Shown in pieces: positions 35,958 through 43,371 of a DNA stretch of 64,000 nucleotides. The position numbers were made by a program, and so were the translations under genes. The stretch comes from Armatimonadota bacterium (GTDB taxonomy: Bacteria > Armatimonadota > HRBIN16), in contig OY781964.1 of NCBI GenBank assembly GCA_963677485.1, positions 2,912,001 to 2,976,000 of the forward strand. The letters are read 5' to 3'. Position 1 is the stretch's first letter. Every line of letters starts with the position of its first letter. The notes beneath the pieces were generated by a model. It saw nothing but the letters and a program-made list of their open reading frames with translations. It ran no database searches and was not told the origin of the DNA.

Positions 35958-35986
35958 TTGCATTAAGCTTTCCTTTACGTTATGCT
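35958..35986 (+). promoter_or_regulatory. Candidate sigma70 promoter of the island operon
   Basis: TTGCAT-17 nt-TATGCT upstream of ATG 36024. Confidence 0.45.
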
Positions 35987-36023
35987 ATATACTATTCATA
36001 TCCAAACCCTGCAGGTCAGTGAC

Positions 36024-37112
36024 ATGAGAAGAAAAATCATCGACATTTTGAAAGACACAATGGGTGGGCAAATTATACCGTGTAAGCCAATCAGTCTTGA
36101 TACTGATTGGAATATGGAAGTACAAGGCAGTAATGAGCGAGGTATTACCCAGGTATTTGAAGATAATGACAATATTAAGGCAAACCCTAAGAACCCTATT
36201 CAACTAGACCTCTCTAAATTATCAAGCTTCCAAAACACTTCATTTCGATATTTTCTAGATGGATCTAGAAAAACGTATCGTCTTGCTGATGTTAATTTCG
36301 AGGGGAATTACTATCCGCTTGTCGGTGGACAAATATGTGTTTCTGTAATAGAACGACTTGATGACGGCAGTTATAAACCTTGTCGCGACTATTGTTGCCG
36401 GAAGAAGCTGCTAGTCTTTCCGCATACCACAGACATCCATGACGTAAAGGTATGGCAAAAGAGCCTTTCTGACGAAAATGTGTCATTTACGGTTTTGCGA
36501 TGCACCAAACCTGTTGGTGATCAAAGACAGGATATCGTAGATAGTGCAATATCGAAAATCCATTCAGAAATGCATCAACTTGAGATCGATGCTGTATCGA
36601 ATATGACTAGAGATAATAAGTTATCTCAATTCAAGAAACTAGTGGTAGACGGTCCTTTGGAATTTACTAAAGGATTAGATAAGTTTCAGTTTCAGTTCGT
36701 TATCGGTCTTTCAAAGACATTTACAGCAAATAGCCGCATCGGACGGTCGGATGTTGGCAATATCACGGTAAATCTTGGTGAAGGTCATAGAACAGCCGTA
36801 TTCAAGGTTGATCACCCATCTGGTAAGATAGGATGCTGGTTCCTTAGAATACGTGACAAGAAGCATACTCAGATGCCACTACAGGGCGTAGTTAAAGTTG
36901 AGTGCTTTGCTGTGCAACCTGAAGATGAGGAAAATGGTATTAACTCAGGATATGTGGATACTATCTCCTACTCTTTACTACGAGAAAGAAACGTAACTCC
37001 ATATAAATCGGATGATAGATGGGCAAGTCATATATACCCCATCTATGTTGCAGAAAAATACGCAAAACTACTTTTTGAGAGCGACTTAGTGTTCCGTGCA
37101 GCATTTGCCTAG
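36024..37112 (+). CDS. NurA-like nuclease (RNase H-like fold)
   Basis: FRYFLDGSR, LVVDGPL, IGLSKT, CWFLRIR, C-terminal HIYPIYVAEKYAK; directly upstream of a HerA ATPase. Confidence 0.7.
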   Translation: MRRKIIDILKDTMGGQIIPCKPISLDTDWNMEVQGSNERGITQVFEDNDNIKANPKNPIQLDLSKLSSFQNTSFRYFLDGSRKTYRLADVNFEGNYYPLVGGQICVSVIERLDDGSYKPCRDYCCRKKLLVFPHTTDIHDVKVWQKSLSDENVSFTVLRCTKPVGDQRQDIVDSAISKIHSEMHQLEIDAVSNMTRDNKLSQFKKLVVDGPLEFTKGLDKFQFQFVIGLSKTFTANSRIGRSDVGNITVNLGEGHRTAVFKVDHPSGKIGCWFLRIRDKKHTQMPLQGVVKVECFAVQPEDEENGINSGYVDTISYSLLRERNVTPYKSDDRWASHIYPIYVAEKYAKLLFESDLVFRAAFA

Positions 37113-37115
37113 GAG

Positions 37116-38795
37116 ATGGATATGGAAACAATTGGAAAAATCAGTGCAACCGAACGCAATCCGACAACATGTAACGATATATCATTCTGGCTAAAACCAG
37201 GTGTGATGATCAGCCCTTTTGACATTGTTAAGGTACAGCATATGGGGAGAGCAGGTGGTACGAGTAATAGCTATGCCATCATTACGAGCCTGTCGCATAG
37301 TACAGACAGTCCCGCGCATCTTTCTAACTTCGTTTCTTCCGATTTTGGTGATGTGGATGTTATGCCCTTAAACCGACGGTTGGGAATAACCGTTGCTGAA
37401 GCCAATGTTCTATACAATGATGATGACGTTGAATTGCCAATAGAGGACGGACAACCTGTCGAGTGGGCTGACGAAGAGGGCATCCGCGAAGCATTAGGCT
37501 TGACACATATGGAACAGCCCATACCAGCCGGGTACATGTCATGTTCAGGCAGCGGAATTGATGTAAGGGTGGATGTTGATGGGCATTTCCTTCTAGGACC
37601 AGAAGGAGCCCATTTGAACATAAGTGGCATGTCCGGGCTGGCAACTAAGACATCGTATGCTATGTTTCTTTTACAATCGATCCAACAAACTACCGATGAT
37701 ACGGCCATTGTGTTGTTCAATGTGAAGGGGAGTGACCTTCTACACATTGACAAAACAAACGAAAATCTTACCGACTATGATGAGAAAAAGTGGAAGACAT
37801 GTGGGCTCAATCCATGTCCGTTTAAAAACGTAACTTACTATTTGCCATATGGCGATAACCCGAATTCTTATACACAGTCGAAAATGGATTCTAACCATTT
37901 ATCTGAGTGCGTTCAACAAAAAAGTGCTTTCAACTATATAGTTGACCCGACTAATGGACTGCAATCATTATCGATGTTATTTCACGACATAGAAGATCCT
38001 AATGCTACATTCGATAGTATCATTGCAGAATTACAGAATAATCAAAACGGGACCTTCAGTAGCTGGGACGATATATACAGCTATATAAATCAAAAGACTA
38101 GTAAAGGGTCAGGTAGTAGTGAAGCAGGTATACATATAGCTTCGTGGCGTCGGTTTCGGCGTTTAGTGACAACCCGAACATCCAACAGCATATTCACCAA
38201 TAAGCTCCAGAGTTATTCGGAGAAACGAAGGCAATTACCTATCGACGAAATAATCAATCATATACAACCGAATACTGTAACTGTGATAGATATAGAACCT
38301 CTGCCTGACTATTTACAGGCTGTAGTTGTCGGTACCATATTAAAGAAAATATACGATGCAAAAACGTGTAATACTGAGGATTATGCTGAAGATGAAACAC
38401 CTGCAAAGTTAGCTGGTGTGAAGAAAGTGGTTATCTTCGCTGACGAACTTAATAAATATGCACCGCAGCAAGGTGGTAATACGAAAACACTAACGCGAGT
38501 ACTACTTGATGTTGCTGAAAGAGGACGGTCTCTTGGGGTTGTGTTATTTGGTGCTGAACAATTCCGAAGCGGTGTTCACGAACGTGTGATTGGTAACTGT
38601 GGAACCCACGTATTTGGACGGACAAGCAGTGTAGAACTCAATAAATGCGCAGATTATAAGCATATGCCAGATGCATATAGGAATTCACTCTTACGGTTAA
38701 CTAAAGGTACATTGTTGCTACAACATGCGGTATTTAAGACGGGCGTAATTCGTATTCACTTCCCTAAACCTGCATATTATCAACCGAAAAACTAA
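37116..38795 (+). CDS. HerA-like ATPase/translocase (HAS barrel + FtsK-HerA domain)
   Basis: N-terminal HAS-barrel-like region, variant Walker A HLNISGMSGLATKTS, FNVKG, Walker B IFADELNKYAP, ERGRSLGVVLFGAEQ. Confidence 0.88.
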   Translation: MDMETIGKISATERNPTTCNDISFWLKPGVMISPFDIVKVQHMGRAGGTSNSYAIITSLSHSTDSPAHLSNFVSSDFGDVDVMPLNRRLGITVAEANVLYNDDDVELPIEDGQPVEWADEEGIREALGLTHMEQPIPAGYMSCSGSGIDVRVDVDGHFLLGPEGAHLNISGMSGLATKTSYAMFLLQSIQQTTDDTAIVLFNVKGSDLLHIDKTNENLTDYDEKKWKTCGLNPCPFKNVTYYLPYGDNPNSYTQSKMDSNHLSECVQQKSAFNYIVDPTNGLQSLSMLFHDIEDPNATFDSIIAELQNNQNGTFSSWDDIYSYINQKTSKGSGSSEAGIHIASWRRFRRLVTTRTSNSIFTNKLQSYSEKRRQLPIDEIINHIQPNTVTVIDIEPLPDYLQAVVVGTILKKIYDAKTCNTEDYAEDETPAKLAGVKKVVIFADELNKYAPQQGGNTKTLTRVLLDVAERGRSLGVVLFGAEQFRSGVHERVIGNCGTHVFGRTSSVELNKCADYKHMPDAYRNSLLRLTKGTLLLQHAVFKTGVIRIHFPKPAYYQPKN

Positions 38796-39278
38796 GGACA
38801 CGAAATTGGACAAACACCTCAATGTTGGAATCTATATCATTGAAATACTTACCCTGGGTATGTATCCTGATGAGCTAGCTGTAATCCGCGAGTACATACA
38901 AAATTCAACGGACTCGATAACTACTGCTATCGACCAAGGCATCCTTGGTGACAGCGAAGGCCGCGTAACTATCCATATGGATGATACGAAAAGATCAATA
39001 ACCATATCAGATAATGGTACGGGTATAAATCCAGAACTTGCCGTAGATATACTGACTTCTATAGGTGACTCAAATAAAGATGGGGAGAGCACTGCCGGAT
39101 TTAGAGGAATTGGACGGCTAGCGGGTATTGCCTATTGTGACCAGCTATCATTTAAGACCTCAAATCGTGGAAGCAATAAATATATCACGGTTCATTTTGA
39201 CTGTAAGACAATCCGGCATCTTATCAAGAACCATCGTATTACTAAGTCACACATTGATGATATGGTGAATTGTATTAG

Positions 39279-40930
39279 TATCTTACCAACCATATTTTGA
39301 ACACGGTGTATAGAATATTCTGATATTACGCACCACACAAAGCGTTAGGCACAACGATCTGGCGAATAGCAAGTGCTGCCATGATGATACGCTTGCCAAG
39401 TGCAGTGAGGTAGTATTTGTAGCGTTTACCGCATTTTTTAACGAGCCGGAATACTCGGCATCGCTTGATGAAGTATGATATCTGAGAGCTGGACATCTGC
39501 GGTAAGGCTTTTTGAAGCATACGGTTTGTGATCCCGCTGATGCATCCCTCTCCGCGAGCAAGTGCAATGAGACATTCCAAATCCTTCTTGAGGAAAAGGT
39601 TGAATCCTCGATACGAGCGATGATCACGGGTGGTCGAGGTCGCGATTTTGATGATCTGATGTTCACCATCGCTGTTGTCATCAAGGGCGGAAAGAAAGTC
39701 AAGATATCTGTTGTTTGCAGATAATAACAGTTCCCTCAATGGAGGAAGGCTGTAGATGGTCTTTTGCATAGGGGCGTATTTAATCTCAGTCGTCCCATCA
39801 TGATGTTCTACCTCACGGTAGTGTTTAAATTCAGAGACGTCATTCACAGTCGTCTCGATACGCAAGATTATCCCTTGCTTGTCATACATTTTGATAGAAG
39901 CCCATCCCATGTAGTGTTTGATGCGCGTGCCTTGTATGCGGCGATCGAACTTGTAGTCAGTGCCGATCTCAGCGAGTGTTCGCCCATCAAGTTTCTTACC
40001 AAGAAACATCGCGATAGACTCTGGCGTTACCGTATGTATCGCTGTTTTGACTAGATTATCGTAGATGGCTTTGAGGTCTTCGGCGCGTTTGAACACGATG
40101 TCTGTAGCATATTCCACCTGCATTAGCGACCAATGATATGAATTGTCAGCAAGCCGTATCACGGGGCAATACATTCTGGCAAATGCATCCAGCGCATGGT
40201 GCAGCTTATCAGCAGGAAAAGCGTCTGCCAGCCTCTGAGCACAGCTAAAGTCGTCGATTTTTACAAAGGCGTTGTCCAGTGGAGTGAAAACTACTCCCTC
40301 GGATTGAAGGCAATGCGCGAGATAATTGTGTCCATTACAATAGAATTGCAGACGGAAGGGCACCCAGGTCGGAACTCGTAGATAGCACAGTCCAAACTCT
40401 GCATCGATGAAATAGAAGTAGTAATGAAGACACTTGGTCTCCTTGATATTCAGCCGGGTTTTGTGGGTAATCTTGTCGTGCCACGGGGTGTATGCAGGAC
40501 ATTTTTCCAACACTGAGAATATGTGGACGAGACCGGGGTGACACCCTCGACTACTAATGATCTCTTTGATGCGGTCTTCTTTTCGAAATGAAGAGGCACG
40601 GCGTATATACTCAATTTCAATGCTGTTGGTAACGGCAAGGCGTTCCGCATTGGCTTTGATCTCATCTCGTAGAGGTTCGGCAAATTCCTTAGGAAAGTCA
40701 AATAGCCTGATGTTGCGTTGATGAAGATAGATGCCCATTCCGTCGCTATGACACCAGCCTGGGATTGTACCGGTGATAACTATGCGGTCGAAGCATGAAT
40801 ATACCCCAGCTATCTGCTTTGCATAGCGTTCTTGAAGTGATGTCATTCTGGGCAACCTCACGAAAGGGTGTTTGAATGTATATTACGTGGCGAATGCAAT
40901 CATTCCTTTTTTGGTTGCGGCTAAGCCGCC
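39279..40930 (-). mobile_element. 1652-bp insertion element flanked by TTAG direct repeats, without terminal inverted repeats
   Basis: TTAG at 39275-39278 and 40931-40934; splits the GHKL ORF; single ORF on the opposite strand; hairpin GCGGC-TAA-GCCGC at 40917-40929. Confidence 0.88.
39326..40861 (-). CDS. Putative transposase with Rep_trans-like nickase motifs and a C-terminal winged HTH
   Basis: Fills the element; QVEYATD...HYMGWASIKMYDK...LRIE; C-terminal GITNRMLQ...QISYFIKR...YKYYLTALGK wHTH; no DDE or HUH motif recognised. Confidence 0.7.
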   Translation of the reverse strand: MRLPRMTSLQERYAKQIAGVYSCFDRIVITGTIPGWCHSDGMGIYLHQRNIRLFDFPKEFAEPLRDEIKANAERLAVTNSIEIEYIRRASSFRKEDRIKEIISSRGCHPGLVHIFSVLEKCPAYTPWHDKITHKTRLNIKETKCLHYYFYFIDAEFGLCYLRVPTWVPFRLQFYCNGHNYLAHCLQSEGVVFTPLDNAFVKIDDFSCAQRLADAFPADKLHHALDAFARMYCPVIRLADNSYHWSLMQVEYATDIVFKRAEDLKAIYDNLVKTAIHTVTPESIAMFLGKKLDGRTLAEIGTDYKFDRRIQGTRIKHYMGWASIKMYDKQGIILRIETTVNDVSEFKHYREVEHHDGTTEIKYAPMQKTIYSLPPLRELLLSANNRYLDFLSALDDNSDGEHQIIKIATSTTRDHRSYRGFNLFLKKDLECLIALARGEGCISGITNRMLQKALPQMSSSQISYFIKRCRVFRLVKKCGKRYKYYLTALGKRIIMAALAIRQIVVPNALCGA

Positions 40931-41997
40931 TTAGGGTTGATGAAGGGAAAGAAGATTCTAATAACCACTATTTTGATGTGGTAATGACTGGTGTTGATAA
41001 TGAAGGCTTTTTCAATCTAGACAGCCTTATGAACTATATCGGAATTGTCGGTCCCGTACCTATGTCGGAGAAATTCGTATATTCCCAAAATTTGCATAGC
41101 GAGTTATTCAACGCATATCATATCAACGAATTCCAAATTGTTCTGAATGGAAATAGCTTTCAACGACAGATATATCGTGAATTCCGGACCGTATATGGGA
41201 TGAAAAGAGGTAAGGCACAAGGCTCCATATACGATATAGATGGTGTACTAGTAAACGTGGTAAGCATTGGTGACCATAGTAAGGTGGCCTATTGGCTTAG
41301 CGAATCCGATTTACGTGGTCAAATTTGTGATCAATATGCCGGACTACGCCTTAGGCACCACAATATCGCCATAGGTGATGTTGACACTTTAGAGACATTA
41401 TGGAAACAAATAATGTTAACTAATCCTTCCGATTCTAGATTTCTCAAGTACTTCATTGGTGATATACACATCATTAGCAATAACGTTGTTCCAAATGCTA
41501 GAAGAGATATGTTTGAAGATAATCAATGTTGGCGGGAGATAGTCGAAATAGCGATTAAACCGCTATTTGAGGACATAACTCGAAAAGTCAGGACTGCATC
41601 AAAAGAGCATGAAGACCCTGAAAAAAAAATAGAGAAGGAAGTGCGTGCGTTAATTGGGCAGGGAAGCGGGTTTTCGTCGCATAGTGCGGTGTTACCTGAC
41701 GACAAGAGGGATTATCTTAAACAAGTTGAGAAAGCAAAAGCAAAAGCAAAAGCTGTTCAAGATGAGAGAGAATTTCCAAACCCACGTATACAGATTGTGG
41801 TTGATGACCTAGACAAAGTTGCATCAACTGTTGCTGAAATAAAGGATCCCTACATCGGGCTAGATCGTAAGCTTCGTAAGGTTGTAGACAGAATTCTTAA
41901 GGCCCTGGGTGGTGTTTTGGATAGTGATAATTACGAACTGGCAAAAGGTGTTATACTTGACGAGTTGACGAACCCTAATGCAAAGGTTGATTTATAA

Positions 41998-43371
41998 TTG
42001 CCGAATATCCTCCTAGTCGAACCTAGTTATAAAACTAAGTTCCCGCCGATCGGTTTACTTCGATTATCTTCATATCATAAAGACAATGGAGATTGTGTTA
42101 GTTTTACTAGAGGCTGCTTACCAGCATATAGAGACCTGTATTGGGACCGTATTTACGTTTCCTCCTTGTTTACATATGAACTGCCGAGAACTGTAAAGAC
42201 AGTACAGTATTACCAACATGCAGTATCCAATCCCGATACCGACATAGTAGTTGGTGGCATCGCGGCAACTCTCATGCCTGACTACATTAAAGACCGGTGT
42301 AGGTGCCGCGTAGTAGTCGGCCCACTCAATCGTCAAGGTCTGATCGACCAACACATTCCCGACATATCGAACTACCGAATAGATTATAGAATCGCAGACG
42401 ATAAACAGTGGAATTATCGTCCTAACGACTGCTATTATTTACGTGCTACCACAGGTTGCATCAGGAAATGCTCGTTCTGTGCTGTCCCTGTAATCGAACC
42501 ATACTTTGGTTTATCCCGTCCGATCAAAGACCAGATTGACGAAGTAAATAACGAATTTGGTAATAAGAAGGATGCGGTATTCATGGACAACAATATACTG
42601 GCAGTCAATGAATTGCCAGATATCATAAGTCAGCTAGTCGACGCCGGATTTAGTACGAAAGCGACATATAATGGTTCACTACGGTCAGTAGACTTCAACC
42701 AAGGATTAGACGCCCGTCTTGTTACCCCACGCATAGCATCATTACTAGGCAAAATATGCTTGAGACCAGCCCGTTTTGCGTATGATAACGAATCTGTGAC
42801 AGATAAATATATCGATGCTATCAGCATGTGTGTAGACCAAGGTATAACCAACTATACGAACTATGTTATGTTCAACTTTCAGGATGATATATATTCCCTA
42901 TACAGACGGCTTGAGCGAAACATCATACTTTCTGCATCAAAAGGTATACGGGTTACCGGGTTTCCAATGAAATATGCTCCCATATATGATGTTGAACGGC
43001 ACTATATAGATGCGAAATGGCATTGGAAATATATCAGAGGTATTCAATGTATTCTAAACGCCACACATGGGATGGTTTCGCCCAATCCATCATTCTTCTA
43101 TCGGGCCTTTGGAAATACAGAAAATGCATTTGAAGAGATCGTATGCATGCCAGAAGGTTACATCATGAGCCGCGTGAAACGTACTGATGACGGTGCCATA
43201 GATGATTGGTTACAGTGTTTCCGCAAGCTATCGCGTGATGACAAAAATTTATATCTACATGCTTTGTCTGAGCTGCATGATGTTAAGGGTGATAGAAGCG
43301 TAATGCTGGATTACCCCCAGTTTGGTGAGCTATGGGTTCATTATGGAACGGATACAAACGTCACAATATAG
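41998..43371 (+). CDS. Radical SAM protein with an N-terminal B12-binding-like domain
   Basis: ILLVEP...PPIGL, VVGGIAATL, CIRKCSFC (CxxxCxxC), MDNNIL, DFNQGLDARL; TTG start abuts the upstream stop. Confidence 0.88.
   Translation: MPNILLVEPSYKTKFPPIGLLRLSSYHKDNGDCVSFTRGCLPAYRDLYWDRIYVSSLFTYELPRTVKTVQYYQHAVSNPDTDIVVGGIAATLMPDYIKDRCRCRVVVGPLNRQGLIDQHIPDISNYRIDYRIADDKQWNYRPNDCYYLRATTGCIRKCSFCAVPVIEPYFGLSRPIKDQIDEVNNEFGNKKDAVFMDNNILAVNELPDIISQLVDAGFSTKATYNGSLRSVDFNQGLDARLVTPRIASLLGKICLRPARFAYDNESVTDKYIDAISMCVDQGITNYTNYVMFNFQDDIYSLYRRLERNIILSASKGIRVTGFPMKYAPIYDVERHYIDAKWHWKYIRGIQCILNATHGMVSPNPSFFYRAFGNTENAFEEIVCMPEGYIMSRVKRTDDGAIDDWLQCFRKLSRDDKNLYLHALSELHDVKGDRSVMLDYPQFGELWVHYGTDTNVTI

Follow-up and report, generated by a model that had tools for sequence, protein, structure and literature searches.

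We analyzed a stretch of 64,000 nucleotides (nt), here called the window, from the genome of an Armatimonadota bacterium (GenBank assembly GCA_963677485.1, contig OY781964.1, positions 2,912,001 to 2,976,000 of the forward strand). The host genome is a single contig of 5.22 Mb with 54% GC. An earlier note, made from the letters of the window, had described at 39279..40930 an insertion element of 1652 base pairs (bp) that carries one gene, disrupts another, and encodes a protein resembling the Rep_trans replication initiators. The element is present in many copies in its own genome, and its gene lies on the minus strand (Table 1). We think it likely that it represents an undescribed, autonomous family of insertion sequences (ISs) moved by a non-HUH, Rep_trans-like tyrosine nickase along a single-strand or rolling-circle route.

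Table 1. Features of the element and of the gene that it interrupts, in window coordinates (aa, amino acids; TBP, TATA-binding protein)
Feature	Position	Strand	Description
Insertion sequence proper	39279..40934	-	1656 bp; exactly this stretch is common to the 22 copies
Gene-upstream end	40905..40934	-	CTAA, one base, hairpin (stem 40917-40921 / 40925-40929, loop TAA), then AACCAAAAAAGG
Gene-downstream end	39279..39300	-	...GGTTGGTAAGATA, then flanking CTAA
Sole gene, putative transposase	39326..40846	-	506 aa from ATG at 40846, stop codon included
Predicted TBP-like / Rep_trans-like beta-rich domain with helical insertions	39770..40813	-	Residues 12-359
Putative catalytic-motif block	39854..40114	-	Residues 245-331: E245 and D249 (QVEYATD), K319-x-Y321-D-K323, R329-x-E331
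MarR-like winged helix-turn-helix	39329..39634	-	Residues 405-506
Target-derived tetranucleotide	39275..39278	+	TTAG here; with the G at 40935 it makes the target
Disrupted HATPase_c_3 gene, N-terminal piece	38806..39278	+	Resumes at 40935..41997; PF13589, E 3.6e-12

A DNA search of the host genome found 22 copies of the element. Over the 1601-nt core that was compared, identity is 100% for 20 copies, 99.9% for one, and 99.4% for one. Alignment of the flanks of all 22 copies gave the extent of the shared sequence, which on the plus strand starts with TATCTTACC at 39279 and has as its last letters ...GCCGCCTTAG at 40934; its closing letters in the flank alignment are GCGGCTAAGCCGCCTTAG, to 40934. 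Read along the gene strand, the element is 5'-CTAAGGCGGC...GGTAAGATA-3'. As the earlier note had said, there are no terminal inverted repeats (TIRs): a repeat search found none at the ends. Nor were there solo ends or derivatives resembling miniature inverted-repeat transposable elements in the genome; each end sequence was found 21 times, always inside a copy.

The length of the element, 1656 nt, follows from three kinds of evidence. When 1656 nt were cut out, both sides of the junction were open for at least 100 codons at 6 of the 22 sites, and when 1657 nt were cut out this was true at 0 of the 22. Two sites (2411349 and 2450131) have a longer open frame on one side after removal of 1657 nt; in a genome of this GC content we took these frames to be due to chance. 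Empty sites were sought with the flanks of 7 copies in two genomes of the same genus. Three queries gave a usable empty site, and the other four flanks matched paralogs, repeats, or part of the flank only, or matched nothing. At the three homologous empty sites, in a same-genus genome with flanks 80 to 90% identical, the length is that in our genome minus exactly 1656 nt. Finally, in three isolate runs a high-depth Logan unitig covers 39279-40935, with a depth 8 to 36 times that of the flanks. A register placed one base leftward was considered and is disfavored; the empty-site base beside the tetranucleotide fits the chosen register at two of the three sites and neither register at the third.

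Some individual copies and runs have features of their own. The copy that is 99.4% identical (genome positions 824515-826173) has a T run beside the hairpin that is 1 nt shorter and, in the hairpin loop, a C in place of an A; this copy may be older or inactive. The copies at ~1.898 Mb and ~3.220 Mb (L012 and L125) lie inside members of a large paralogous gene family, and their flanks have more than 40 matches, at 64 to 78% identity, in a same-genus genome (G141), many of them at 2.96 to 2.99 Mb. In one run (X4), contigs exit the element at window positions 39359 and 39964 into unrelated sequence, which suggests a truncated or interrupted copy in that strain.

The two tetranucleotides at the junctions behave differently. 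The TTAG at the right end is constant, whereas in the flank alignment the tetranucleotide to the left is TTAG in 17 of the 22 copies, ATAG in 4, and TTAA in 1. Thus, there is no true target duplication; the right TTAG belongs to the element and the left tetranucleotide is supplied by the target. At the TTAA site, the relative in the same genus (G141) likewise has an A at the fourth position, which backs the target origin of the variable tetranucleotide. The base after the right end (40935) is G in all 22 copies, and the base that follows is never C. The target is WTAG^G, or C^CTAW along the gene strand. The earlier note had therefore found the right object but had given it a TTAG duplication that it does not have, and the element proper runs over 1656 bp, from 39279 to 40934.

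In the window, the element interrupts a gene whose N-terminal piece belongs, by Pfam, to the HSP90/MORC-type ATPases. Removal of the 1656 nt rejoins the frame, with 176 and 354 open codons on the two sides. The earlier note had set the boundaries of its element by this disrupted gene, and the gene and its restored frame bear that out.

The ends are conserved far beyond this genome. Relatives of the protein were found at 577 loci in a collection of one genome per species, and ends were studied in the best 80 of these (51 to 59% protein identity). In seven other genomes, comparison of copies within the genome placed the boundaries at the same motifs as in the window element. Across phyla, and in the direction of the gene, the element starts with (C)CTAA-N, a 5-bp GC hairpin with a 3-nt loop, and AACCAAAcAGG, and it finishes with TAAG-nn-A followed by CTAA. 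Conservation of the ends among homologs, on which the earlier note had made its reading depend, is therefore what we found: both the ends and the CTAA junction are retained in other phyla.

We sought the hairpin end in the 80 loci by the anchor AACCA[AG]A alone, which gave 52 distinct stretches of 36 nt. The hairpin-end motif is present in 51 of these, and the remaining one (L064) is a false anchor. The anchor is absent from 26 of the 80 loci, 10 of which are too short upstream. Five Nitrospirota loci have AACCAAG at the anchor and otherwise keep the motif. The window copy and 30 loci, with no identical rows, were aligned for an analysis of covariation; the 21 stretches omitted were, by eye, repeats of the 30-nt cores or differed only in their last bases. 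The hairpin is paired in 94% of the cells of this alignment, and slid controls are paired in 6 to 37%. Compensatory changes (C-G to G-C or T-A) occur at two of the five pairs, in 11 cells; in 500 shuffles this was never equaled. Conservation does not extend to the loop. Because the single-strand folding energy of the ends was uninformative (z of -1.1 to +0.5), our claim of a hairpin is drawn from the covariation and not from folding energy.

At the other end, the pattern T[AT]A[GA]-n2-4-CTA was found in 44 of 64 loci, 51 to 144 nt past the open reading frame (ORF). We dropped the idea that the two ends pair in a circle junction; AACCA is invariant and its proposed partner, judged by eye, is variable. 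One 2286-bp contig of a metagenome genome (L070; positions 150-215 and 1830-1860) has two slightly different related copies head to tail, with a single CTAA between the finish of one copy and the hairpin start of the next. This arrangement is the expected product of insertion at the CTAA flanking an existing copy.

On a Sedimentisphaerales chromosome, the similarity of three copies (L037, L038, and L039) runs past the usual ends. CTAATAC precedes the CTAA-hairpin end, and beyond the other end there is a CTAATAC and a palindrome of ~30 nt (CTCAAACTGG...CAGTTTGAG). Either another repeat encloses the element, or the element has acquired an additional 3' module.

The non-coding ends of the element are 88 and 47 nt long. 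They bear on whether this might be an IS110/IS1111-type element, whose recombinase is RNA-guided or site-specific. Elements of this type are characterized by a DEDD transposase and a long non-coding stretch that specifies a guide RNA. They likewise lack terminal repeats and target duplications, and those of the IS110 type reprogram their targets. Our element shares with them the lack of TIRs and of a target site duplication (TSD) and the short identical core at both junctions. However, its protein has no DEDD or other Pfam match, the element has no match in Rfam, the ends are short, and the same CTAA core accompanies proteins that are 50 to 60% identical in different phyla. We rejected membership in IS110/IS1111 and regard a recombinase of this type as very improbable. 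No sigma-70-like promoter was found in the 88 nt upstream of the gene.

The single ORF of 511 aa reported in the earlier note is present (39326..40861, minus strand, from an upstream GTG at 40861), but both the called protein and its homologs start from the ATG at 40846, and residue numbers below refer to the resulting 506-aa protein. It matched no Pfam families (E<=0.1) and no NCBIfam entries, and among the 25 Pfam families listed for 70 full-length members of the family there is no transposase. In these family models there is no match to an established IS family, an outcome that the earlier note had said would refute its reading. A profile search of the PDB with the family alignment gave chance matches only (best E 0.25), and PHROGs gave a single chance match (E 0.19).

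Relatives are nonetheless abundant. Of 8000 candidates scored, 7998 matched, mostly proteins of ~505 aa on contigs of 1.6 to 2.5 kb, and 6552 clusters of a library clustered at 50% identity were matched at E<=1e-3. That so many relatives sit on contigs of about the length of the element, with flanks, is as expected if a repeat breaks the assemblies. They are named "hypothetical," "MarR family transcriptional regulator" (P0066), or "ArsR family transcriptional regulator" (H31), just the misannotation as a MarR-like regulator that the earlier note had foreseen, and a protein atlas has only unnamed clusters for the family. The identity of a MarR regulator, a stand-alone winged helix-turn-helix (wHTH) dimer of ~150 aa that controls genes nearby, was rejected; the wHTH takes up only residues ~405-506, and the protein is the product of the sole gene of a mobile element with 22 copies.

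By record titles, the best 80 relatives come from Acidobacteriota, Nitrospirota, Chloroflexi, Planctomycetota, Armatimonadota, Spirochaetota, Bacillota, Actinomycetes, Pseudomonadota, Bacteroidota-type families, Gemmatimonadota, Cloacimonadota, and others, and one from an archaeal metagenome-assembled genome (MAG), Bathycorpusculum. Several genomes are multicopy: the 80 loci include at least 5 copies from one Nitrospirota MAG, 4 from one Acidobacteriota MAG, and 3 from the Sedimentisphaerales chromosome. The protein profile of the family matched 15 of 401 sampled genomes of the phylum, several of the matches being fragments or containing stops, and 0 of 17 other genomes of the same taxonomic family; the DNA of the element had no match in two genomes of the same genus. 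The element is recent in this genome and patchy elsewhere. Its mobility is shown by this distribution and by the 22 copies, 20 of them identical, which interrupt genes.

Plasmid records of Rhodococcus, Burkholderia, Paraburkholderia, and Mycobacterium (H32-H45) contain distant relatives, 21 to 25% identical over 85 to 99% of the length. They occur at up to 4 places per record, on large plasmids, and are annotated as hypothetical. They may form another branch of the family that has diverged further.

An element with one Rep-like gene and a hairpin could also be a minimal replicon of the rolling-circle type, made up of a Rep gene and a hairpin origin. Its protein would then chiefly initiate replication, and the copies integrated in the chromosome would be a by-product. 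Its gene content and its hairpin-plus-Rep layout are like those of the smallest rolling-circle replicons, and Rep_trans proteins are described as replication initiators (PMC4797284). Against such a replicon, which we consider quite unlikely, all copies in complete genomes are chromosomal and have exact ends, most matches are on element-length contigs that carry flanks, and the best matches in plasmid collections lie inside large plasmids rather than in replicons of ~1.7 kb. The two ends are not joined in any Logan contig of four runs.

An AlphaFold2 model was built with the family alignment and compared with the PDB and BFVD by Foldseek. Over the full protein its pLDDT is 93.1; a model of residues 1-362 reached 94.7. 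The model has a long N-terminal strand (12-27), four strands within 105-171, a helical insertion, and then strands at 238-252, 294-301, 306-313, 316-323, 327-334, 341-347, and 353-359; a helical linker joins this beta-rich part to the winged helix at 405-506. Rep_trans proteins have a crescent-shaped, TBP-like antiparallel sheet composed of two modules of five strands each. In them, an N-terminal strand is described as central in the TBP-like sheet, with the motifs on strands 6, 9, 10, and 11 (PMC4797284). The predicted strand order agrees with that topology: a central N-terminal strand, four strands, and then the motif strands.

With the full model, chains of 4cij (RepSTK1) took ranks 1 to 4 among the PDB matches (4cij_A, E 4.6e-4, probability 1.00), and 4cwe and 4cwc (RepDE) came at ranks 7 and 13. 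With residues 1-362, ranks 1 to 4 and 7 were 4cwc, 4cwe, and 4cij (E 1.5e-3 to 6e-3, probability 0.94 to 0.99). TBPs matched both models at probabilities of 0.94 to 0.99 and template modeling (TM) scores of 0.48 to 0.59; 1mp9_B, for example, matched the full model with a probability of 0.99 and a TMt of 0.59. The winged helix matched 1r7j (probability 1.00, TMt 0.68), the MarR protein 2rdp (probability 1.00), and Sso10a, and there are weak Pfam wHTH matches in family members, including HVO_A0261_N in 33 of the 70. The top BFVD matches were viral TBPs and Inoviridae proteins at E ~1e-5. Among them is A0A345MNV4 (E 1.3e-5), described as an Inoviridae replication initiator with PF02486 (PMC13107129). 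No DDE/RNase H, HUH, or serine or tyrosine recombinase fold was found at a probability of >=0.8 in the top 50 PDB matches, and the Foldseek matches listed include a single HUH-type relaxase chain, 8a1c_A (TraI), at a probability of 0.20. On the fold check that the earlier note had suggested, the model is not of the RNase H/DDE type, and its best PDB matches are Rep_trans proteins and TBPs.

Conservation was assessed in the 70 full-length sequences, which go down to 28% identity. Invariant positions are D20, R21, G105, Y143, Y145, G152, P163, N171, N192, E245, F252, K319, Y321, R329, and E331; at D249 and K323, conservation is 90% or more. The motifs that the earlier note had listed (QVEYATD, HYMG-x6-YDK-x5-RIE, and a C-terminal wHTH) are all present, but the Tyr of HYMG is not conserved. 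The motif string that it had given for Rep_trans agrees with pT181 RepC, which in a plasmid record reads RLDLAFD, KYFG, RIYNK (within it IYNK), and WRVEIE (within it WRVE). According to Carr et al. 2016, the nucleophile of RepC is Y191, flanked by R189 and K193, and the metal ligands D46, D142, and E214 lie each on a separate strand (PMC4797284).

For a Rep_trans profile, we aligned RepC with 13 PF02486 matches from the 401 genomes of the phylum (n=14); a RepC homolog search had listed only near-identical staphylococcal proteins and was unfit for a diverse profile. Alignment of the family with this set by hhalign gave one block, SIKMYDK...LRIETT on IRIYNK...WRVEIE, with a pairwise E of 0.0045 and residues 312-333 placed on RepC 182-216. 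It pairs K319 with R189, Y321 with Y191, K323 with K193, R329 with R212, and E331 with E214, so that the nucleophile flanked by basic residues (R189-x-Y191-x-K193) has its counterpart in K319-M-Y321-D-K323. The pairs E245~D142 and D20 (in FDRIVITGT)~D46 were aligned without confidence; they would fit by order, strand position, and invariance. A permissive hhalign path keeps the acidic strand roughly co-linear.

Several results weigh against a Rep_trans-like nickase moving this element by a single-strand route. The hhalign probability is 7.7%, with 22 columns confidently aligned, and hhalign against RepC alone gave nothing significant (probability 0.1). The low-confidence part of the hhalign path puts the Asp motif of the Rep N terminus on residues 78-85 and not on D20. 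PF02486 matches neither the protein (E<=0.1) nor the genome (E<=1), and the 25 Pfam families listed for the 70 members do not include Rep_trans. The Foldseek E values to Rep_trans structures are modest (4.6e-4 to 6e-3), and these structures superpose with TM scores of 0.19 to 0.35 and a root mean square deviation of 11 to 13 Å, a remote likeness and no clean superposition. Cumulative GC skew has its minimum at 2.15 Mb and its maximum at 4.75 Mb; relative to an origin and terminus placed on this basis, 15 of the 22 copies point the same way (p=0.13), which is no clear strand bias of the IS200/IS605 type. The Logan contigs of the four runs contain neither a circle junction nor an empty site, but contigs drop rare forms.

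Because of the low TM scores, the hhalign probability, and the lack of a Pfam match, we call the protein a distant relative and not a member of PF02486. As remote homology, its placement within the TBP-fold tyrosine-nickase lineage is supported by the alignment and the predicted model: the top Foldseek matches and the hhalign placement of YDK...RIE on RepC Y191...E214 both lend the earlier note's idea of a Rep_trans-derived nickase remote support. The weak scores would also suit a real IS whose TBP-like domain only binds DNA and whose active site is elsewhere (for example, at D20/R21, Y143/Y145, N171, or N192), the likeness to Rep_trans motifs being convergent or coincidental. TBP, which is not an enzyme, matches the model about as well as Rep_trans does, and several invariant residues lie outside the Rep_trans-like motif block. 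However, the sole block that hhalign found is the very block that holds the Rep_trans nucleophile and a metal ligand, its residues in question are invariant down to 28% identity, and none of the other recombinase and nickase folds named above appeared among the top PDB matches. We therefore consider an active site elsewhere unlikely, although it is the strongest of the alternatives.

We return to a Rep_trans-like tyrosine nickase, for which a mechanism can be proposed by analogy. The protein would bind the conserved hairpin end, and Tyr321, the presumed nucleophile, would cut one strand by the tetranucleotide (TTAG^ on the plus strand of the window, ^CTAA on the gene strand). Cuts would fall at both junctions of the element and at the WTAG^G target, each leaving a 5'-phosphotyrosyl link, the intermediate through which Rep_trans proteins nick at specific sites. 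An acidic triad would hold the metal; E331 is aligned to a RepC ligand, and E245 and D20 are candidates by motif order and conservation only. Free 3'-OH groups would then resolve the links, and one strand of the element would be moved or copied. This might proceed through a single-stranded circle and a resealed donor (peel-and-paste, as in IS200/IS605) or through rolling-circle copy-out (as in IS91 and Helitrons). By either route, there would be no duplication, a tetranucleotide would be shared by the two junctions, and the element copy of it would be constant and the target copy tolerant of mismatches. The invariant Y143 and Y145, which lie in the pseudo-symmetric N-terminal half of the sheet, might provide a second nucleophile, a monomer doing the work of a Rep_trans dimer.

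Among known systems, the Rep_trans initiators (pT181 RepC/RepD and RepSTK1; 4cij, 4cwc, and 4cwe) are the best structural matches. They share with the element protein the order of the motifs (acidic strand, K/R-x-Y-x-K, R-x-E), a hairpin DNA site adjoining the gene, and a DNA-binding helical domain after the catalytic sheet. Unlike them, the element protein is ~200 aa longer, with large helical insertions and a MarR-like wHTH, and it belongs to a chromosomal multicopy element with defined ends, not to a plasmid or phage. pT181 is reportedly nicked in the hairpin loop; because the loop of our hairpin is not conserved, the cut would probably fall beside the hairpin instead.

Nickases of the Rep_trans type that mobilize chromosomal elements are described among the MOBT relaxases, such as Tn916 Orf20, ICESt3 RelSt3, and ICEBs1 NicK (PMC6499999, PMC9371924). 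These start the conjugative transfer of a large element that a separate recombinase integrates, whereas the nickase-like protein is the only gene product of our element and must account for insertion. In Rep-Arvir (DUF7845) of archaeal viruses and plasmids, a nickase-type domain with a TBP fold is joined to a MarR-like region (PMC13107129). The status of the element protein is much like that given to Rep-Arvir in this source, a distant relative with a MarR-like region. Rep-Arvir proteins differ in being replication initiators of viruses and plasmids that have separate integrases, and in their Tyr motif, KHYYM; DUF7845 is absent from the 25 Pfam families that were listed for the 70 members.

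In the logic of its DNA, the element most resembles IS200/IS605 and IS91, which are moved by HUH enzymes unrelated to its protein. Like IS200/IS605 (HUH Y1, peel-and-paste), it has no TIR, no TSD, and a subterminal hairpin, and it inserts by a fixed tetranucleotide that lies outside the element at one end, with a similar one closing the other end. Unlike IS200/IS605, its enzyme has an unrelated fold, is three times larger, and has no HUH Y1 match in Pfam or NCBIfam; one conserved hairpin was demonstrated, and there was no significant lagging-strand bias (15/22). With IS91/ISCR and Helitrons (HUH Y2), it shares a putatively Rep-derived transposase, the lack of duplication, a tetranucleotide target, and a hairpin near one terminus. 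It differs from these in having no HUH motif or fold, no helicase domain, and the same tetranucleotide at both junctions.

The interrupted ATPase gene of the window belongs to a same-strand cluster (35982..43371). Of the proteins encoded beside it, one (376 aa) matches no family, and another (559 aa) is a HerA-like ATPase by PADLOC (HerA, E 1.8e-6), with a weak Pfam match to DUF87. A third, of 457 aa, weakly matches radical SAM and B12-binding families. The N terminus of the interrupted ATPase itself has a weak PADLOC match to TmtA (E 8e-5). The cluster may be a defense-type operon that was knocked out by the insertion.

IS families are sorted by the chemistry of their transposases: DDE, DEDD, HUH, and serine or tyrosine recombinases. 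A full-text literature search found no paper tying Rep_trans-type proteins to an IS. The missing NCBIfam transposase match hints, only indirectly, that the family is absent from IS catalogues. The Rep-derived transposons reported so far (IS200/IS605, IS91/ISCR, Helitrons, and Replitrons) are all HUH according to a preprint (bioRxiv 10.1101/2022.12.15.520654). We lean, somewhat beyond an even chance, toward the family being the founding member of a further class of prokaryotic transposases, a single-protein, single-strand transposase with a TBP fold, of the non-HUH Rep_trans lineage and with a 5-nt target; it would be ancient and horizontally spread, across more than a dozen bacterial phyla and an archaeal MAG.

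If this is true, transposition has drawn on a second lineage of rolling-circle nickases as well, one unrelated to the HUH enzymes, and the element may add a new enzyme class to the bacterial transposons. Recognizing the family would correct many annotations and improve the detection of ISs in environmental genomes. Compact insertion by one protein, by a short defined sequence and without duplication, would also be of interest for studies of DNA-insertion enzymes.

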